DNA of 64,000 nucleotides from an uncultured Gammaproteobacteria bacterium (lineage in GTDB: Bacteria; Patescibacteriota; Patescibacteriia; Veblenbacterales; UBA10138). The stretch's first letter is position 1; each line of letters begins with the position of its first letter. The position numbers and the translations under genes are program-made. The notes beneath the pieces were generated by a model. It worked only from the letters and a program-made list of their open reading frames with translations, was not told the DNA's origin and made no database searches. Of this stretch, positions 10,922 to 59,359 are shown piece after piece. Where the stretch lies: the NCBI GenBank assembly GCA_964453605.1, contig CAYVOI010000001.1:241627-305626 (forward strand), in the 5' to 3' direction.

Positions 10922-11557
10922 CTAGAAGCTCACCTTCACTGGCTGCCGCTCAGCGTCACTGTCCACCCCAAAGAACTCACGCTTCTGAAAGCCGAACGAG
11001 TTGCCGATGATGTTGGAGGGGAACGTTTCCAGCGCCGTGTTGAGGTCCCTGACCATACCATTGTAGAATCGGCGGGCGGCTTGGATTTTGTTCTCCGTGT
11101 CGGTAAGGTCGTCCTGGAGTTTGCCAAAGTTAGCTGAAGCCTTAAGGTCGGGGTAGGCCTCGGCCACAGCGAAGAGGCTCTTCAGCGCACCCGAGAGCAT
11201 GTTCTCAGCTTGAGCCTTATCGTTCATGCTTTGCGCACCCATGGCGCGAGTTCGAGCTTCGGTTATGTCGTTAAACACTTTGCTCTCGTGCGTGGCGTAC
11301 CCTTTTACCGTTTCCACCAAGTTTGGTATCAGGTCGTAGCGGCGCTTGAGCTGCACGTCGATGTCGCTCCAACCTTCGGCCGAGCGGTTTTTGAGCGAGA
11401 CCAAACGGTTGTAGGTAGCAATGGCCCAAATGATAACCAGAACTACAATGGCGATAACAATAGTGGTTGGTGACATAAGTTTACGGTAAAGGTTTAGTGA
11501 CGCTTTTGGTGTTCCAGCGTCAAGAACCAACTTTAGCATTTCTAGGTGAAAAATCAA
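10922..11557 (-). CDS. lemA: LemA family protein
   Basis: 211 aa, N-terminal TM segment, LemA-like coiled region. Forms the canonical lemA-htpX pair. Confidence 0.8.
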   Translation of the reverse strand: MIFHLEMLKLVLDAGTPKASLNLYRKLMSPTTIVIAIVVLVIIWAIATYNRLVSLKNRSAEGWSDIDVQLKRRYDLIPNLVETVKGYATHESKVFNDITEARTRAMGAQSMNDKAQAENMLSGALKSLFAVAEAYPDLKASANFGKLQDDLTDTENKIQAARRFYNGMVRDLNTALETFPSNIIGNSFGFQKREFFGVDSDAERQPVKVSF

Positions 11558-11641
11558 GCAGGTTTTGTTCGTTGTATGTAGTGGTGGCGGTTTATTTTAG
11601 CTTGTTTTAGCTGAAATTTAAGGCCTATAAGCGGCTATCCC

Positions 11642-11670
11642 TTGACAAATTACTTAGGCTGCGCTATAGT
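11642..11670 (+). promoter_or_regulatory. Near-consensus sigma70-like promoter (TTGACA-N17-TATAGT)
   Basis: TTGACA 11642-11647 and TATAGT 11665-11670. It faces a roughly 600-nt ORF-poor, hairpin-rich region. Confidence 0.4.
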
Positions 11671-12014
11671 AATCAGTTACTGCAAAACTGCGCAGTAGCA
11701 CCAGGAGCAGCCGAAAATCGGCTGACCAGATGGAAAACCCTTACGGAAAACAAACAAGGAGAGTGCCCTAATGGCCTCGTACCCAACTGGTTTCATCTAG
11801 TTTAACAACCCATCGTCGTTCTTCCCGTCGATCATACTAGTCGAACAGTCAAACAACCAACGCCGGAACGCGATGAAAAAATTTCCCAACGGGTTTACGT
11901 AGCGTATGCGCTACATAGGGGGACATCGACAACTTGTCCCCCACGCGCCTAAGTTCATCTGAGTCTCATGTAAGAAGGTGACTTTAGGGGTGTTCATTAC
12001 CAATGGTTGCTCCG

Positions 12015-12250
12015 CAACCGCCCCGATGACCGTCGGGGTGAGAGCGAAGCTCTCAGTTGTCTCTACTACCCTGGGAGGGGAGAACCCTGAAGTAGGCTTT
12101 CAGCCACTTCAGGGCAAGGGGATATGCTAAGGCCAGAGCCGGTTTACACTGGCTCTAACCGGAGGTATATTCCTGGCACGCTGGCCTTCGGGCTTAAGGC
12201 GAGCCATTCTCCTACAGGGTTGTAGTGACAATTAATTCAAGTACCAAAAT
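12015..12250 (+). ncRNA. Structured RNA leader/ncRNA, paralog copy 1
   Basis: Shares ordered hairpins with 38245..38500: CCCCGA-N6-TCGGGGTGAG, then GAGnGCGnAGCnCTC, a GCC-UUCG-GGC tetraloop hairpin, and an AT-rich tail before a strong SD. Confidence 0.35.
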
Positions 12251-12266
12251 AAAAAATGGAGGGTGT

Positions 12267-12446
12267 ATGGAAACAACAAAAATTGTCGTTACGCGACGCA
12301 GTGCTGATTACCACGCGTGCATCAAAGGTCACCCGGAAATTTGGGGTTGTGGGGCATCAATTGCCGAGGCAGTTGGCAATTTGGTTCAAACGCACAGAAC
12401 CGAGTTCAATCTCGAATTTGAGGCTGACATGCCCGATCCCGTGTGA
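12267..12446 (+). CDS. HicB-like (UPF0150) small antitoxin-fold protein
   Basis: 59 aa METTKIVVTRRSADYHACIKGHPEIWGCGASIAEAVGNLVQTH matches the H-x-C-x-x-x-P-x-x-G-x-G-x-S-x-x-EA pattern of the HicB N-terminal domain. Strong SD GGAGGGTG. Confidence 0.45.
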   Translation: METTKIVVTRRSADYHACIKGHPEIWGCGASIAEAVGNLVQTHRTEFNLEFEADMPDPV

Positions 12447-12529
12447 ATTTTCTGTTGACTGTTAGTTGGAACGCCGTATGGTTTCGCCCAGCGGCTTTTC
12501 TTTTTTACTCATTCTGCTAGGCTCTAACT

Positions 12530-13634
12530 ATGCAAGAAGCTGAGCTTGTTCGTAACCTTCGCGCGCTGAAGACCAGAGTCGAGGATGCGCGGAACTGGCT
12601 TTGACCCAGAAAGGGTAAGGGCCAGGTTGGCCGCGCTCGAGGCTGAGATGTCAGCCCCTGAGTTCTGGGCTGATCAGAACCGAGCTAGAGCCGTAACCGC
12701 TGAGCACGACGGCGCTAAAACTGAGCTTGAAGCCTGGGAGAAGTTGCAGCGGGAAGTTGGTGATGCTCTAGAGCTTGCGAGTGCTGACCAAGCTGACCAA
12801 TCGGTTTCTCTCCGTGATGATTTAGAAAAAGTGTACGGCGCTCTACTCAAGCGAGTAGAGGCTTTTGAGTTTAAAAAGTTGCTCGGGCAAAAGTACGACG
12901 AGGCCAATGTGCTACTCGCTGTACACGCTGGCGCTGGCGGCACTGACGCGCAAGACTGGGCTGAGATGCTCCGGCGCATGTACCTCCGGTACGCTGACCA
13001 AATGGACTGGCACGCTGAAGTGGTGGACGAGTCGCGAGGTGGTGAGGCGGGCATCAAGAGCTCTCTCCTCAAAATTACTGGTCGTTATGCTTATGGATAT
13101 TTAAAATGCGAAGCCGGTGTGCACCGCCTGGTGCGCATTTCCCCGTTCGACGCTGAGAAAATGCGCCACACCTCATTCGCGCTCGTGGAGGTGCTGCCTG
13201 AGCTGCCAGAGGTGGGCGAGGTGGAGCTGGACCTTAAAGATTTGCGTATTGATACGTTCATGTCCTCAGGGCACGGCGGGCAAAGCGTAAACACCACGTA
13301 CTCAGCGGTACGCATTGTCCACATTCCAACTGGCATCACGGTCACCTGCCAGAATGAACGTTCACAAATGCAGAACAAAGAAACCGCCATGAAGTACCTG
13401 CGGGCCAAGCTGTGGCAGCTCGAGTGGGGTAAGCAGCAAGCTGAAAAGCAAAAACTCAGGGGAGAGTTCAAGAGTGCGGAGTGGGGGAACCAGGCTCGGT
13501 CGTACGTTTTGCACCCTTACAAGTTGGTGAAAGACCACCGCACCGAGTTTGAAACCACCAACCCTGATGTTGTACTCAACGGTGAGCTTACGCCGTTTAT
13601 AGAAGCCAGGCTTAAGCAGCTGGCGACCGCCTAA
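12530..13634 (+). CDS. prfB: Peptide chain release factor 2, with programmed +1 ribosomal frameshift
   Basis: Frame 0 runs from ATG 12530 (MQEAELVRNLRALKTRVEDARNWL) into CTT TGA C at 12599-12605. The +1 frame from 12603 continues through SPF and GGQ motifs to 13634. CDS is join(12530..12601,12603..13634). Confidence 0.9.
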
Positions 13635-19203: not shown

Positions 19204-19475
19204 TTGACAAAACACTTCACTTGCGCTACACTGGTAGTAGCTCTTCCACATGCTTGATACCAATTGAGCTCTATACATATATGCCATGGGGTTCGCATAG
19301 CTAACGCCTCCGGGCGACAGCTGAGAACGCCACGCGGCAGTGTGGTAGGGGAGTAACGGGACGTTTGATGGGAGTGAGGAACACGCTCTCATCCGCACCC
19401 AGCTTCCCTAAGCCCAGCCCAACTGGAGTCTAGGAACTCCAATTCGTATCAAGCCCTGGTAGGGCTTTTAATTTT
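19204..19475 (+). ncRNA. Candidate small ncRNA unit: consensus promoter to intrinsic terminator, no ORF
   Basis: TTGACA 19204-19209, N17, TACACT 19227-19232. Terminator AGCCCT-GGT-AGGGCT plus TTTTAATTTT at 19452-19475. About 235 nt between them with no ORF longer than 10 codons. Confidence 0.3.
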
Positions 19476-19525
19476 GCCCAAATATTGCTACAGTGCCAGA
19501 GCTCAATACCCGTATTGAGCACTCT

Positions 19526-19653
19526 GGTCGGGGTGTGGTGTACCCCGAAGAATCCGCCAGTCGGCGGATTTACGGGGCAGGCATGCACCCGAGGGGGCGA
19601 GAGCGAGCTGGCGTAGCTCTCGCGGGCAGTTACATTGAAAAAGTATCCATGGT
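19526..19653 (+). pseudogene. Degenerate 5' fragment of tRNA-Pro with hairpin insertions
   Basis: Starts with the same 19 nt as the tRNA-Pro 5' end (GGTCGGGGTGTGGTGTACC). Retains ATGCACCC but has a nested hairpin inserted in the D-loop and no T-arm or acceptor 3' half. Confidence 0.4.
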
Positions 19654-26725: not shown

Positions 26726-27097
26726 ATGACGACGCGAGCAGACACAACCCACGCCAAGGTGGCCCACACGCAGGCCCCGGAAGAGGAAGAGTCACGCTCG
26801 CGTCTTCGTATCCGCATCCGCGCCTACGACCACAAGATTATCGACCAGTCCGTCCGGACCATTCTCGACACCGTCCTCCGGTCCGGCGCCAAGGTGATGG
26901 GACCTATACCGCTTCCGACGGAGAAAACCCGCTTCACCGTGAACAGCTCCTCGTTCATCGATAAGAACGCTCGCGAGCAGTACGAAATGCGGGTGCACAA
27001 GCGGCTCTTAGACATCGTAGACCCAACCCCCAAGACCATCGACGCTCTAACCAACCTCAGCTTACCAGCAGGGGTTGACCTAGAGATTAAGATGTAG
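26726..27097 (+). CDS. rpsJ: 30S ribosomal protein S10
   Basis: [15 protein letters not shown]... with a short N-terminal extension. Confidence 0.9.
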
Positions 27098-27311
27098 TAG
27101 AGTTACAACGTTCTTGAAATCCTTCTAAAACTTCCCCTACGTGTAGCCTTAGCACTGCGACGGTGGCCCTAAAGACCACACCTACAGCTGCCAAAGCCCA
27201 CACCTACGGAGTTCCTCTCACTTCTCACCACCTTACCCCGACATTCTTGTATGACAACCGTTTACCGGAGTTTTGGAGTTGTGGGTAGGTAAACGGTTTT
27301 TGTTTAGAGCT

Positions 27312-27457
27312 TATGCCCAGCATGACAACTTCGCTAGTGCTCGATTCAACCACCATGTATAACAACCTTATGTTTCGTATAAAGTCTTTATTCACTAACC
27401 ATTCGCTTACTTCTCCTCGCACTGAGGTGGTTGAGCGAAGTTGCTCTGCTGGGTATG
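27312..27457. mobile_element. TATG-flanked miniature inverted-repeat element, copy A
   Basis: TATGCCCAGCATGACAACTTCGCTAGTGCTCG...GAGCGAAGTTGCTCTGCTGGGTATG. Terminal inverted repeat CCCAGCA/TGCTGGG, flanking direct TATG. Its 3' ATG is the rplC start. A terminator lies just upstream at about 27258-27308. Confidence 0.6.
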
Positions 27458-36829: not shown

Positions 36830-38107
36830 ATGTGGGCCAAGCTTGAGCAGATAGTAAAAACGCCTGACCTGAGGAACAACCTGTTCTTCGTGCTCGGGTG
36901 TTTAGTGGTGTTCCGCCTGGCGGCTCACCTGCCCATACCAGGCGTGAACCCCATAGCGCTTAGGAACTTTTTTGGTTCGAGCCAGCTCCTGGGGTTGTTG
37001 AACCTCTTCTCGGGCGGGGGCTTACAGAACTTCTCGGTGGTTATGTTGGGTGTGGGGCCCTACATTACCGCGTCCATCATCATGCAGCTCCTCACTATGA
37101 TCGTGCCGCGCCTAGAGGAGATTTCCAAAGACGGTGAAGCTGGCCAGCAGCGCATCAACCAGTACACGCGCTGGCTCACCGTGCCCCTAGCTGCTCTCCA
37201 AGCCTATAGCTTCATCGTGCTCCTTAAGAACCAGGGCGGTGGGCAGATTATCGGGAGCCTGACCCCGTGGCAACTTGGCACCAGCATTGTTACCATCACT
37301 GCCGGTACCATATTCCTCATGTGGCTGGGGGAGCTTATTTCCGAACGCAAAGTGGGGAACGGCGTTTCGCTCATTATTTTTGCCGGCATTGTGGCTACCA
37401 TCCCCACGCACCTGGAGCAGGCTCTGGCGACCTACGACTCGTCCCAGCTCCCGAGCCTTATCGTGTTTATGGCGGTGGCGCTCATTACTGTTATTAGCGT
37501 AGTCGTAGTCACTGAAGCCCAGCGCAACATTCCCGTAACCTACGCTCGCATGGTCAAGGGCCCCCGTACCTACGGCGGCGCCACCACCTTCTTGCCGCTC
37601 AGGTTGCTTCAGGCCGGTGTTATCCCCATCATCTTCGCCATCTCTGTCATACTGTTCCCGCCTATGGTGGCAAACTTTTTGGTAAAGTCGCAGGCGGCCT
37701 GGCTCGCCAGCGCTGCCCAGTACACCATTACCTTGTTCCAAAATCAGACGTTCTACGCCATTGCCTACTTTGTGCTCGTCTTTGGCTTTACCTACTTCTA
37801 CACAGCGGTCATTTTCAAACCTGATCAAATTGCCGAGAATTTGCAGAAGCAAGGCGGCTTTATCCCAGGGATACGGCCGGGGGGGAGTACCACTGAGTAC
37901 CTGGGACAGGTTATGAACCGTATTATTTTCCCTGGTGCCTTGTTCCTCGGGCTCATTGCCGTGCTCCCCTTGGTTATGCGTGGCGCTACCGGCAGCCAGC
38001 TCCTCGTTATTGGTGGCACCTCGCTCCTTATCGTGGTGTCGGTAGTCATTGAAACCGTGCGGCAGATAAACGCGCAACTTGTAATGCGCGACTACGACGA
38101 GCTGTAG
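36830..38107 (+). CDS. secY: Preprotein translocase subunit SecY
   Basis: 425 aa, 10 TM segments, conserved SecY motifs. Confidence 0.95.
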   Translation: MWAKLEQIVKTPDLRNNLFFVLGCLVVFRLAAHLPIPGVNPIALRNFFGSSQLLGLLNLFSGGGLQNFSVVMLGVGPYITASIIMQLLTMIVPRLEEISKDGEAGQQRINQYTRWLTVPLAALQAYSFIVLLKNQGGGQIIGSLTPWQLGTSIVTITAGTIFLMWLGELISERKVGNGVSLIIFAGIVATIPTHLEQALATYDSSQLPSLIVFMAVALITVISVVVVTEAQRNIPVTYARMVKGPRTYGGATTFLPLRLLQAGVIPIIFAISVILFPPMVANFLVKSQAAWLASAAQYTITLFQNQTFYAIAYFVLVFGFTYFYTAVIFKPDQIAENLQKQGGFIPGIRPGGSTTEYLGQVMNRIIFPGALFLGLIAVLPLVMRGATGSQLLVIGGTSLLIVVSVVIETVRQINAQLVMRDYDEL

Positions 38108-38127
38108 GTTGTTGCCATTTTCGACCA

Positions 38128-38162
38128 CGAAATCCTTGGCTAACGCCAAGGATTTTTTGTTT
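38128..38162 (+). terminator. Rho-independent terminator after secY
   Basis: AAATCCTTGGC-taac-GCCAAGGATTT followed by TTTTGTTT. Confidence 0.6.
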
Positions 38163-38244
38163 ATTGTTCTACAGTCTGTTCCACAACCCTTGACTTTTTG
38201 GCGGTTTTGGACTATGTTTAATAGTTCTTTAATAATGGCTGCTT

Positions 38245-38500
38245 CGTCAGCCACCCCGACAGTCATCGGGGTGAGCGCGGAGCGCTCAATAGCTCATTCG
38301 CACCCTCCTGCAGGGAGCCCCAAACTACGTAACGAGTTCGGGGTGGAGGAACAGGCGGTACGTAACTGCTTAGGGTTGGAGTAGTCTGGCCTTGGGCAGA
38401 TGGCGTACTGCTGGTACACCAGCCTTCGGGCATAAGGTGTGCCAGTTCACCTTCAGGATGGTGCGGGTGAGTAATTAACTATTGAAATAAAATAAACAGA
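38245..38500 (+). ncRNA. Structured RNA leader/ncRNA, paralog copy 2
   Basis: Promoter TTGACT-N17-TATGTT at 38190-38218. Ordered hairpins CCCCGA-N6-TCGGGGTGAG and GAGCGCGGAGCGCTC, a GCC-UUCG-GGC hairpin, and an AT-rich tail shared with 12015..12250. Confidence 0.35.
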
Positions 38501-38513
38501 AAGGAAAAACAAA

Positions 38514-38681
38514 GTGAAAGCCAAATTTATTATTGGGGTGATTCTCTTCACTGCGGGGGTCGTCTTGAACCTCTACCATCGTATTAGCACTGGGGAATGG
38601 GCCGATTACAATGTACTGTTACTTATGGGCATTGGTATCATGCTCATCAGCATAGGCAATAAAATTTTCAAATTGAAGTAA
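38514..38681 (+). CDS. Small hydrophobic protein (GTG start)
   Basis: 55 aa VKAKFIIGVILFTAGVVLNLYHRISTGEWADYNVLLLMGIGIMLISIGNKIFKLK with two TM-like segments. AAAGGA upstream. A terminator follows at about 38712-38751. Confidence 0.3.
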   Translation: MKAKFIIGVILFTAGVVLNLYHRISTGEWADYNVLLLMGIGIMLISIGNKIFKLK

Positions 38682-38777
38682 TAATTTGTGCCTAAGCGGG
38701 TGAATAGATTTAAAGAAGGTCACAGAACATCGTGGCCTTCTTTTTATTTTCCAGTCAAGTAAGGTAAACTGTACTGT

Positions 38778-48485: not shown

Positions 48486-48561
48486 TTAGTACGTGCTTAT
48501 TTAGTCTCGGACTTGAAAAAGTAAGTGAAAGCTACTATAGTTCACACGCAGTTCTTTACAC

Positions 48562-58483: not shown

Positions 58484-59206
58484 CTATTTGGCAACAGCCG
58501 CATAACGAATTGGCTGTGCCTTTTTTTTGATTTTTTGGGTTAACCCAACGGTCCGGACACCATGGCTGCAAAGATATGGGAAAAAATGTCCACTGCTACC
58601 TTGTATTACCTCTTTATCCAAGGAGATAATTGCGAATTTTCTCTGTAGACCAGGATAGCGCTTACCGATAGCAAGCAGTTCCGCAATATTCGCAGGGCGA
58701 TATCCCAGCCTATCTAGTTCAGCAATAATCTGGTGGCGGTCTAAGCCCCGATAACCAACTTCATGGTTTTCTAGGTTGACTAAAAAAATTTCTGTGTCAA
58801 CCTCGCCATTCCCTGAAATTGGAAAATTCGAGGCATTGATCGTGTCATGAATTTTTCCATACTTGCCACCTTGAAGCATTTCCTCAAGCGACTGATTATA
58901 GTTCACTGACACAGTGACTGATCTTATTTTCCAGTCGTCCGTACTGTTGCCTGGTAGTTGTGGAGTAACTGCAGGCTCCTCGTCGACTACGTTACTTTTT
59001 TTTACCAGCGTCAGTTCCTTGCCTTCCACCAATGCCGTAAGAGCGAGACGTAAATTCCCAATCAGCGCCTTTTTCTTGTTTGTTTTCAGAGCCCTTATCA
59101 GCGTGCTTATTTCCGAAGTTCCAAAATCAGCAATGATTGTTGTGATGGCTTTAACAATCATACTAAACAATTTCAGGAACTCCGAGGTCGTTTCTTGTCG
59201 GTCCAT
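58484..59206 (-). CDS. Hypothetical protein (AT-rich)
   Basis: 240-aa ORF whose composition is distinct from its neighbours. Confidence 0.4.
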   Translation of the reverse strand: MDRQETTSEFLKLFSMIVKAITTIIADFGTSEISTLIRALKTNKKKALIGNLRLALTALVEGKELTLVKKSNVVDEEPAVTPQLPGNSTDDWKIRSVTVSVNYNQSLEEMLQGGKYGKIHDTINASNFPISGNGEVDTEIFLVNLENHEVGYRGLDRHQIIAELDRLGYRPANIAELLAIGKRYPGLQRKFAIISLDKEVIQGSSGHFFPYLCSHGVRTVGLTQKIKKKAQPIRYAAVAK

Positions 59207-59359
59207 GGTTCCCTCTCTTAGAGTAGAGTGATGTATGTTTGTTTATTAAAATTTTTAAAGAACATTATATATTATCACTAAATTAACGTTGTGTCAATAG
59301 CTCTGTTGTTGCCATAAGTAAAAGCACTCCCGCTGAATAGCGGGAGTGCTTGATTTATA

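Follow-up and report, generated by a model that had tools for sequence, protein, structure and literature searches.

A conserved structured RNA domain in Veblenbacteria-like Patescibacteria, with a possible role as a boxA-dependent leader of small variable genes

The window analysed here is a 64,000-nt stretch of contig CAYVOI010000001.1 (assembly GCA_964453605.1), from an uncultured bacterium of the Patescibacteriota. Between its lemA and prfB genes lies an intergenic interval (11642-12266) that contains a conserved structured RNA with strong covariation, a conclusion that is well supported by the sequence comparisons described below. An initial annotation had taken the interval for one ORF-free, hairpin-dense transcript of about 600 nt, too long and too structured for a simple 5′ untranslated region (5′ UTR), and had proposed either attenuation through a short upstream open reading frame (uORF) or a large non-coding RNA. 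The interval is indeed non-coding, promoter-driven and structured, but its conserved part measures about 178 nt, not about 600; comparison with relatives indicates that the stretch is a composite of a conserved 3′ domain and a genome-specific 5′ extension. A second copy of the domain in the window, a boxA signal and variable ORFs downstream changed the interpretation: we tentatively favour, with somewhat less than even confidence, a cis-acting structured leader dependent on Nus factors (boxA), with the layout of a miniature pre-rRNA or of the lambda N leader.

The two copies of the domain and the predicted helices of the first are the following (CM, covariance model; R1 is one such model).

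12055-12232, plus strand: conserved structured RNA domain, copy 1; CM R1 scores 125 bits on the plus strand vs 34.5 on the minus strand
12056-12081 pairing with 12208-12232, plus strand: helix P1, predicted fold
12085-12114, plus strand: P2, predicted fold
12118-12174, plus strand: P3, predicted fold
12175-12205, plus strand: P4, predicted fold
38292-38471, plus strand: conserved RNA domain, copy 2, between secY and adk; R1 scores 69 bits (E 9e-12), vs 9 bits on the minus strand

Conservation in relatives is limited to 12055-12232. The element was located by eye, and afterwards by pattern and CM; a blastn and nhmmer comparison of 11561-12270 with 80 prfB loci had returned a single 46-nt match, and in the pairs of comparison loci L105/L106 and L108/L109, whose release factor 2 (RF2) is 87-90% identical, the matches are restricted to 12056-12084 and 12158-12234. 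The homologous element is 146-231 nt long, starts with ...CUAC(N2-3)CCUGGGAGGGG... and ends with ...CAG(G/A)(G/U)U..GUAG.... Each homologue individually folds into a three- or four-way junction closed by P1, a helix of about 25 bp, which in all members comprises 24-27 nearly continuous pairs interrupted only by bulges of 1-2 nt and whose 5′ strand (CCUGGGAGGGGAG) is invariant in most of the members found at prfB. P2 is an optional hairpin, and P3 is a long one with the tip UUGGU-loop-ACUGA, whose U.G/G.U/G-C pairs vary little or not at all across the nine aligned members. P4, in the six members that are GC-rich, consists of a nearly invariant GCC-UUCG-GGC with a 3′ AUAA bulge. In the minimal members, just 1-4 nt join one helix to the next.

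The predicted fold is backed by compensatory change. With four sequences, RNAalifold recovers 57 pairs, 22 of them compensatory. In the alignment of nine sequences, 92.2% of the cells pair, vs 37-44% when the partners are slid, and 36 of the 56 pairs show changes on both sides; the covariation score is 0.643 vs 0.10-0.135, and none of 500 shuffles reached it. This alignment was fitted to the model, and the same pattern was already visible in the first alignment (A3), which is plain MAFFT. The scores also point to the sense strand: members score 31.7-153 bits on the plus strand vs 9-39 on the minus strand, each at least 11 bits higher on its own plus strand. The description of the interval as hairpin-dense also holds, as many further hairpins occur up to 12232 and the minimum free energy (MFE) of 11670-12270 is -243.7 kcal/mol, compared with -181 +/- 6 for shuffled sequences (z -10.5 on the plus strand and -7.4 on the minus strand). 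For copy 2 the fold z is -8.2.

That the interval is free of genes was borne out by the absence of any ORF longer than 50 aa on either strand. A missed gene, the finding that would have overturned this claim, was sought by comparing 10,181 six-frame ORFs from 115 related loci with 11480-12270 by tblastn, which returned chance-level matches only. A decayed gene was likewise rejected, on the basis of these chance-level matches and of ORFs that are all of 50 aa or less.

The Rfam scan proposed in the initial annotation (Rfam 15, 4227 models) yielded no family for the stretch. At the gathering threshold, the whole window gives six tRNAs and nothing else; at E<=10, the segments 11400-12600 and 38100-38760 give only chance-level matches of 15-25 bits. 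ARAGORN detects neither tRNA nor transfer-messenger RNA (tmRNA) in the stretch. Eight related loci have no Rfam match at the RNA, and T-box leaders are found elsewhere in them (L001 8566-8867, 114 bits; L105 6203-6486, 97 bits). Among known RNAs, 6S RNA was rejected, since the domain is a branched junction and not a rod with a large central bubble, and since no 6S model matches at E<=10. The signal recognition particle RNA, RNase P, tmRNA and 5S RNA, as well as the Mn2+ (yybP-ykoY), glycine, ZTP and S15-leader RNAs, were dropped for lack of an Rfam match and because their architectures differ. Nothing relevant appeared among the top-ranked results of literature searches on structured RNAs of the candidate phyla radiation (CPR). 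The fold looks like a new RNA family, whereas boxA-led non-rRNA transcripts and structured leaders are already known kinds.

The family comprises ten distinct sequences, i.e., the two window copies together with L001, L009, L010, L011, L097, L105, L109 and L111; the CM search detects orthologues ahead of prfB in eight other, distinct relatives. The family has been found in a narrow, Veblenbacteria-like clade of Patescibacteria. The relatives identified through RF2 are without exception metagenome-assembled genomes of Patescibacteria, and the nearest named one is Candidatus Veblenbacteria. A CM built from six sequences (R2) found no further member in 94 sources; it scores copy 2 at 109 bits, but copy 2 was among its training sequences. 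Sampling was biased towards prfB, and the one unbiased scan was limited to the exact pattern. Of 23 loci from a metagenome pattern scan, L097 alone proved a true homologue; 17 of the remaining 22 matches trace to a single gut coding gene, and L094 was discarded after being inspected. A viral scan with the 14-mer CCTGGGAGGGGAGA gave 120 chance matches, which were reused as a negative control, and no CM match above 14 bits was obtained in 100 viral loci carrying the 14-mer. Two members have local peculiarities. In L111 (1847-2293), a public 148-aa gene call, probably a false ORF, spans the structured RNA, and in L011 (3170-3340), a GC-rich hairpin element of about 170 nt, flanked by TTGACAAAATTGTCAAGCCGCG and GCGCGGTTGTCAAGA and resembling a miniature mobile element, lies inside the AT-rich promoter region of the RNA.

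Located between the terminator of secY (38129-38156) and adk, copy 2 constitutes a separate transcription unit. It is not conserved in the relative L236, where a 119-aa ORF occupies the space between secY and adk. A CM scan of the window with filters off revealed no third copy.

The signals that precede the two copies are listed below.

11642-11670, plus strand: sigma-70-type promoter TTGACA-N17-TATAGT, 11 of 12 matches; probable start of the copy-1 transcript
11992-12002, plus strand: degenerate copy-1 boxA GTTCATTACCA, 9 of 11 matches to GYTCTTTAANA; followed by ATGGTTGCT, as in L111
12005-12055, plus strand: three leader hairpins, GGTTGC-TCC-GCAACC, CCCCGA-N6-TCGGGG and TGAGAGC-GAA-GCTCTCA
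From 38178, plus strand: copy-2 promoter, with GTTCCACAACCC, TTGACT at 38190-38195, N17 and TATGTT at 38213-38218
38224-38234, plus strand: copy-2 boxA GTTCTTTAATA, an exact consensus match

Copy 2 and most relatives share the pattern (GTTCCAC-N5-6-)TTGACA-N17-TATNTT, and five nucleotides past the -10 hexamer starts GTTCTTTAA(C/T/A)A, an exact match to the boxA consensus GYTCTTTAANA, which was derived for Nus-factor binding (PMC5725501). The family carries a promoter-proximal match to this consensus on the sense strand: exact in copy 2, L009, L097, L105, L109 and L111, and with one mismatch in L001, L010 and L011. The promoter and boxA of copy 2 are nearly identical to those of the prfB-locus RNA of L105. 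Within the window, the combination of promoter and boxA occurs six times with up to two mismatches, against 0.49 expected, and twice exactly, against none in 200 simulations. The consensus promoter described in the initial annotation is present ahead of copy 1, at 11642. Directly upstream of the copy-1 boxA, the hexamers are no longer promoter-like; the boxA-adjacent promoter of this copy has decayed, and transcription probably starts at 11642; P1 lies 385 nt from the promoter in copy 1, vs 30-100 nt in relatives. In copy 2, the three leader hairpins of copy 1 are matched in unchanged order (38237-38290), the last two alike in sequence and the first in shape only. The last of them, at 12039-12055, was listed by the terminator scan and lacks a real U-tract; its copy-2 counterpart is tailless.

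The promoter-boxA combination also occurs without the junction RNA, and exact boxA sequences of this kind are found in L003, in L112 and on the minus strand of the window at 59263. In L003 (2537-2580), boxA leads straight to a Shine-Dalgarno (SD) sequence with a leader of about 40-46 nt. In L112 (1811-1925), the leader of about 100 nt contains only a 16-bp hairpin (AATTATTCTTACAAAT/ATTTGTAAGAATAATT), then an SD and an ORF of 124 aa with a signal-peptide-like N-terminus. On the minus strand of the window, TTGACA-N17-TAATAT with an exact boxA (GTTCTTTAAAA) at 59253-59297 is followed by a 46-nt CA-rich leader, without structured RNA, and then by an ORF of 240 aa without Pfam match (58484-59206, minus strand). 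From these leaders, the basic module is promoter, boxA, A/C-rich linker, SD and ORF, with the structured RNA as a self-closing insert between boxA and linker. One of the weaker window matches of the combination, at 48513-48561 (plus strand), consists of TTGAAA-N17-TATAGT and the boxA-like GTTCTTTACAC and ends right at the 5′ end of a tRNA-Lys (48562), which suggests that the promoter-boxA element may mark stable-RNA units in this genome. Two further stretches were observed on the plus strand. At 27075-27370, TTGACC-N17-TAGAGT and GTTCTTGAAAT precede about 270 C-rich nucleotides that end in a terminator-like hairpin, a candidate small RNA. At 19204-19653, a TTGACA-N17-TACACT promoter is followed by about 400 hairpin-rich nucleotides up to a tRNA-Pro, the first 15 nt of which are duplicated at 19528-19542.

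Downstream of the RNA, the members share a linker and differ in what follows it (TM, transmembrane).

12233-12266, plus strand: unstructured, A-rich, largely G-poor linker, without terminator
12258-12265, plus strand: SD GGAGGGTG, within the linker
12267-12446, plus strand: ORF behind copy 1, a 59-aa soluble protein without Pfam or PDB match
38514-38681, plus strand: ORF behind copy 2, 55 aa with two hydrophobic (TM) segments and a GTG start
38712-38743, plus strand: own terminator of the copy-2 unit, after the 55-aa ORF
L009: 63-aa protein after the RNA, 38% identical to the 59-aa ORF of the window
L105: 136-aa protein with four TM segments, then a 42-aa peptide
L111: 42-aa peptide related to that of L105
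L109: 74-aa and 62-aa proteins with two TM segments each
L001: 190-aa P-loop protein, then a 102-aa Csx3-like protein
L097: 197-aa lipoprotein-like ORF
L010 and L011: ORFs of 22-24 codons

The linkers of the relatives are equivalent, often with an AAUCACA-like motif, and in every member 35-60 nt, largely G-poor and A/C-rich, separate P1 from an SD and start codon. With the leader hairpins folded, boxA is placed at the base of P1 and the SD 25-45 nt past the opposite strand. Most members have no terminator between RNA and ORF, canonical terminators being located after the ORFs; in L011, a terminator lies about 90 nt past the RNA. The ORFs belong to at least nine types without a common family, often membrane or secreted proteins, and are different in almost every genome. 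For the 59-aa protein, named HicB-like in the initial annotation, sequence searches (Pfam, PDB), a low-confidence structure model (pLDDT 67) and a fold search returned nothing, and the assignment is unsupported. The P-loop and Csx3-like proteins of L001 (2863-3863; PF09620, 28 bits) constitute a defence-type pair at this variable site.

These features can be combined into a working model of a boxA-dependent leader, in which binding of Nus factors, anti-termination, cutting by RNase III and the regulatory effect are inferred by analogy with the systems cited below. The strong sigma-70 promoter would start transcription at or just before boxA. NusB/S10 bound to boxA would render RNA polymerase resistant to Rho over 200-600 nt of untranslated C-rich RNA, and the complex, by holding the 5′ end at the polymerase, would favour long-range closure of P1 in the manner of a leader-trailer helix. 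Closure would bring boxA and the bound complex next to the downstream linker and SD, and the folded domain would then decide the fate of the small-ORF mRNA, i.e., its translation, access for Rho and stability. RNase III could cut P1, a quasi-continuous helix of at least 20 bp (about two turns) and thus of sufficient length, and so uncouple RNA and ORF. In the MFE structure of the copy-2 transcript, the UCUUU run of boxA (38225-38230) pairs with AAAGGA in the SD region of the downstream ORF (about 38500-38505). Such pairing could clamp the 5′ and 3′ parts together until released by the binding of Nus factors; given that any boxA and SD are inherently complementary, it may also be without meaning.

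Precedents exist for parts of this model. BoxA-bound Nus factors repress translation of suhB, even with 100 nt added between boxA and SD (PMC5725501), and untranslated CRISPR transcripts are shielded from Rho by boxA (PMC7665894). As in these leaders of E. coli/Salmonella suhB and of CRISPR, boxA is here found on non-rRNA transcripts, and in L003, L112 and at window 59263 the start codon follows it after about 40-100 nt, and the two leaders of about 40-46 nt, the shortest, resemble suhB; unlike them, the present family has a conserved structured domain between boxA and gene, and it serves short, variable accessory ORFs. The lambda N leader has the same order of parts, namely promoter, 5′-proximal boxA, about 200 nt of structured untranslated RNA, SD and short gene. 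In a published summary, nutL is described as affecting the N ribosome-binding site over about 200 nt of highly structured, RNase III-sensitive RNA, with the Nus/N complex acting at this distance and RNase III cleavage in between modulating the effect (PMC5725501). Unlike lambda, our family has neither a boxB hairpin nor an N protein, is chromosomal in CPR bacteria with at least two loci per genome, and contains a conserved multi-helix junction in place of one long stem. In pre-rRNA, boxA is located ahead of the leader-trailer helix (PMC10250234). The family resembles the leaders of rRNA operons in its strong promoter, its GYTCTTTAANA boxA, its long helix enclosing a structured RNA (PMC10250234) and a P1 that is long enough for RNase III. 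It differs from them in that no rRNA model fits the enclosed RNA of 100-180 nt, in that a translated ORF comes after this RNA, and in that neither boxB nor boxC is recognised.

Several observations count against the proposed boxA-dependent leader. Relatives at a similar distance (L002-L008, L110, L112-L115) lack the RNA ahead of prfB, as do about 70 more distant loci, and the family is small (ten distinct sequences from one clade), with a nine-sequence alignment that was fitted to the model. BoxA was scored by identity to a gamma-proteobacterial consensus, and the consensus drifts with phylogenetic distance (PMC5725501, PMC7665894); the comparison loci that were fetched contain no rRNA gene. 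Copy 1 itself has a boxA with just 9 of 11 matches, about 320 nt past its sole good promoter. Close relatives share the RNA and differ in the ORF behind it, and in L010 and L011 the "ORF" amounts to only 22-24 codons; this turnover behind a retained RNA fits an RNA with its own function at least as well as it fits a cis-regulator. Moreover, the invariant 5′ strand of P1, the P3 tip and P4 are features that the leader model leaves unexplained.

The genome-specific part of the interval comprises the following features.

11671-11991, plus strand: 5′ leader extension, without DNA or protein similarity in 115 related loci
11687-11696, plus strand: perfect 10-nt palindrome ACTGCGCAGT, read from the sequence
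11708-11724, plus strand: hairpin CAGCCG-AAAAT-CGGCTG, read from the sequence
11756-11763, plus strand: SD AAGGAGAG, followed by 7 nt and the ATG of the uORF
11771-11800, plus strand: 9-codon uORF, ATG GCC TCG TAC CCA ACT GGT TTC ATC TAG, read from the sequence
11896-11917 and 11918-11942, plus strand: hairpins of the extension

The literal features of the initial annotation, including palindrome, hairpin and uORF with its strong SD, are thus all present, some of its coordinates being off by about a base. With the sole good promoter at 11642 and a degenerate boxA at 11992, the 5′ region is best described as an extension, about 320 nt long and specific to this lineage, that separates the two. 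The non-conserved part alone (11677-11990) is moderately structured, with a fold z of -3.9 on the plus strand and -2.8 on the minus strand. A search of the window for further copies of the 385-nt 5′ part yielded only one 20-nt match, which corresponds to the leader hairpin common to copy 2, and a repeat or mobile element as the source of this part was rejected on this account. The SD and uORF of the extension resemble the linker, SD and start of the downstream ORFs of the family (compare L111), and we conjecture that the extension may be the stump of an older cassette.

Attenuation through the uORF, in which a single RNA of about 600 nt would control downstream expression by way of uORF translation, now seems barely credible. 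It would be in keeping with a good SD, spacing and ATG, with a uORF on the same transcript and with a 5′ part that folds better than shuffled sequences, and a short ORF behind a good SD, placed in a long leader, recalls the trp and his attenuators. When conservation was checked, as the initial annotation had advised, the uORF, its SD and the 5′ hairpins were found in no relative, including those with RF2 87-90% identical, and the same is true of the sequence from 11671 to about 11990; since these 5′ 380 nt or so are limited to this genome, uORF attenuation is not supported, and neither is a large non-coding RNA. In addition, the terminator scan gives no U-tract terminator between 11800 and 12267 (the sole hairpin listed, at 12039-12055, has a poor tail), so that the terminator/antiterminator alternatives of trp and his are missing after the uORF, which itself contains no run of regulatory codons and the SD of which is partly paired in the MFE structure of the 5′ part. 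An arrangement like that of type I toxin-antitoxin loci is also highly improbable. Such loci typically have long structured leaders and processing, and the long 5′ UTR would here silence the mRNA of a small toxic membrane peptide until processed; hydrophobic peptides of 22-74 aa do follow copy 2 and the RNA of several relatives. The soluble 59-63-aa proteins of copy 1 and L009, the 190-aa P-loop protein of L001 and the 197-aa lipoprotein-like ORF of L097 do not fit this picture, the SD lies outside the fold, and simple, crude consensus scans disclosed no antisense (minus-strand) promoter. We consider it quite improbable, too, that the RNA is a neutral or selfish insertion, comparable to an intervening sequence (IVS), whose stem-loop between boxA and the ribosome-binding site is tolerated since its closing helix holds the flanks together. 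The RNA is optional, given the boxA leaders without it (L003, window 59263) or with a 16-bp hairpin (L112); insertions of leader hairpins are common (L109, the GC-rich element of L011, the 320-nt extension described here) and the distribution is patchy. Yet compensatory changes preserve the fold in two paralogues and between genomes rich in GC and genomes rich in AT, whose RF2 is 67-90% identical, the P3 tip (nine members) and P4 (six GC-rich members) are invariant or nearly so, and there is no transposase, repeat copy or target duplication.

A riboswitch-type sensor, with the junction as an aptamer for a small molecule or ion that controls membrane or secreted proteins, is improbable for other reasons. 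The family shares with orphan leader RNAs and riboswitch aptamers its size (146-231 nt), its compact multi-helix junction with conserved internal loops, its strong covariation and its 5′-UTR position, and several of the downstream ORFs encode small membrane proteins. It lacks their coherent gene set, the cargo being a soluble 59-aa protein, a P-loop and Csx3-like pair, a lipoprotein-like ORF and peptides with 2-4 TM segments; it also lacks an expression platform, as neither a terminator nor an SD-sequestering helix is tied to P1 and 25-45 nt separate the fold from the SD. The 1-4-nt junction strands of minimal members leave little space for a pocket, P2, loops and extra hairpins are variably present, and none of the 4227 Rfam models, riboswitches included, matches even at E<=10. 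The strongest rival is a stand-alone stable RNA, unlikely as it is on the whole: the domain would be the product itself, made like rRNA or tRNA from a strong promoter with boxA and a long closing helix that RNase III or some other processing enzyme cuts, trans-acting and probably protein-bound, and the ORFs would use read-through. Its retention at the prfB locus in front of an ORF that differs in almost every genome, the 22-24-codon ORFs of L010 and L011 and the L011 terminator so close behind the RNA all agree with such a product, as do the 24-27 nearly continuous pairs of P1 and the boxA-like element ahead of tRNA-Lys. The invariant or near-invariant 5′ strand of P1, P3 tip (nine members) and P4 bulge (six GC-rich members) resemble sites for protein or metal. 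Against it stand the lack of a terminator or obvious 3′ end after the RNA in most members, the SD and ORF at a narrow spacing of 35-60 nt in every member, and the promoter and boxA that serve ORFs without the RNA (L003, window 59263) or with a hairpin only (L112). Its patchy occurrence, with two diverged copies here and a relative that has none between secY and adk, would be unusual for a housekeeping RNA, and it has neither the rod-with-bubble shape of the 6S type nor an Rfam match. A broader formulation, which we regard as somewhat unlikely, is that of a new structured RNA class made by CPR bacteria in the style of rRNA, with strong promoter, boxA and a closing helix of the leader-trailer type, either as a stable protein-bound RNA with its own function or as a cargo-independent expression module for small accessory genes.

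The surroundings of the RNA at the prfB locus are variable in part. In the window, the interval is flanked on the left by lemA (10922-11476, minus strand), with htpX beyond it, and on the right by the 59-aa ORF (12267-12446), followed by prfB and then comEC. The prfB gene (12530-13634, plus strand) has at 12599-12605 the CTT TGA C of a classic +1 frameshift; upstream of this site, the SD-like stimulator is weak in the window (CGGAACUGG) and strong (AGGGAGG) in the AT-rich loci L009-L011. The pre-prfB interval of L110 (1028-2423) and L113 (97-1982) holds genes for F420-ligase-like, RibD_C and Vut_1 (vitamin/queuosine-precursor transporter) proteins and no RNA, and in L110 lemA is found beyond these genes.

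To our knowledge, very few non-coding RNAs of Patescibacteria (CPR) have been described apart from rRNA, tRNA, RNase P, tmRNA and certain riboswitches. Given the tiny genomes of these bacteria, a fold of 150-230 nt kept in two copies is unlikely to be idle. If its function were merely structural or neutral, the family would add modestly to the known orphan RNA motifs. The RNA is also of practical concern, since gene callers place false ORFs across it, and promoter plus boxA offer a simple sequence handle by which these bacteria could be searched for further units, non-coding or small-protein, with high expression. If the boxA-dependent leader is real, an uncultured lineage that branches deeply would be added to those in which Nus factors control non-rRNA transcripts, and the arrangement of the lambda N leader would have a counterpart in cellular genomes. 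If, instead, the RNA represents a new class in either of the forms considered above, Nus-factor control would span a whole set of small genes in reduced genomes, and the expression module would be one into which accessory genes, such as those for membrane peptides and defence-type proteins, are slotted.

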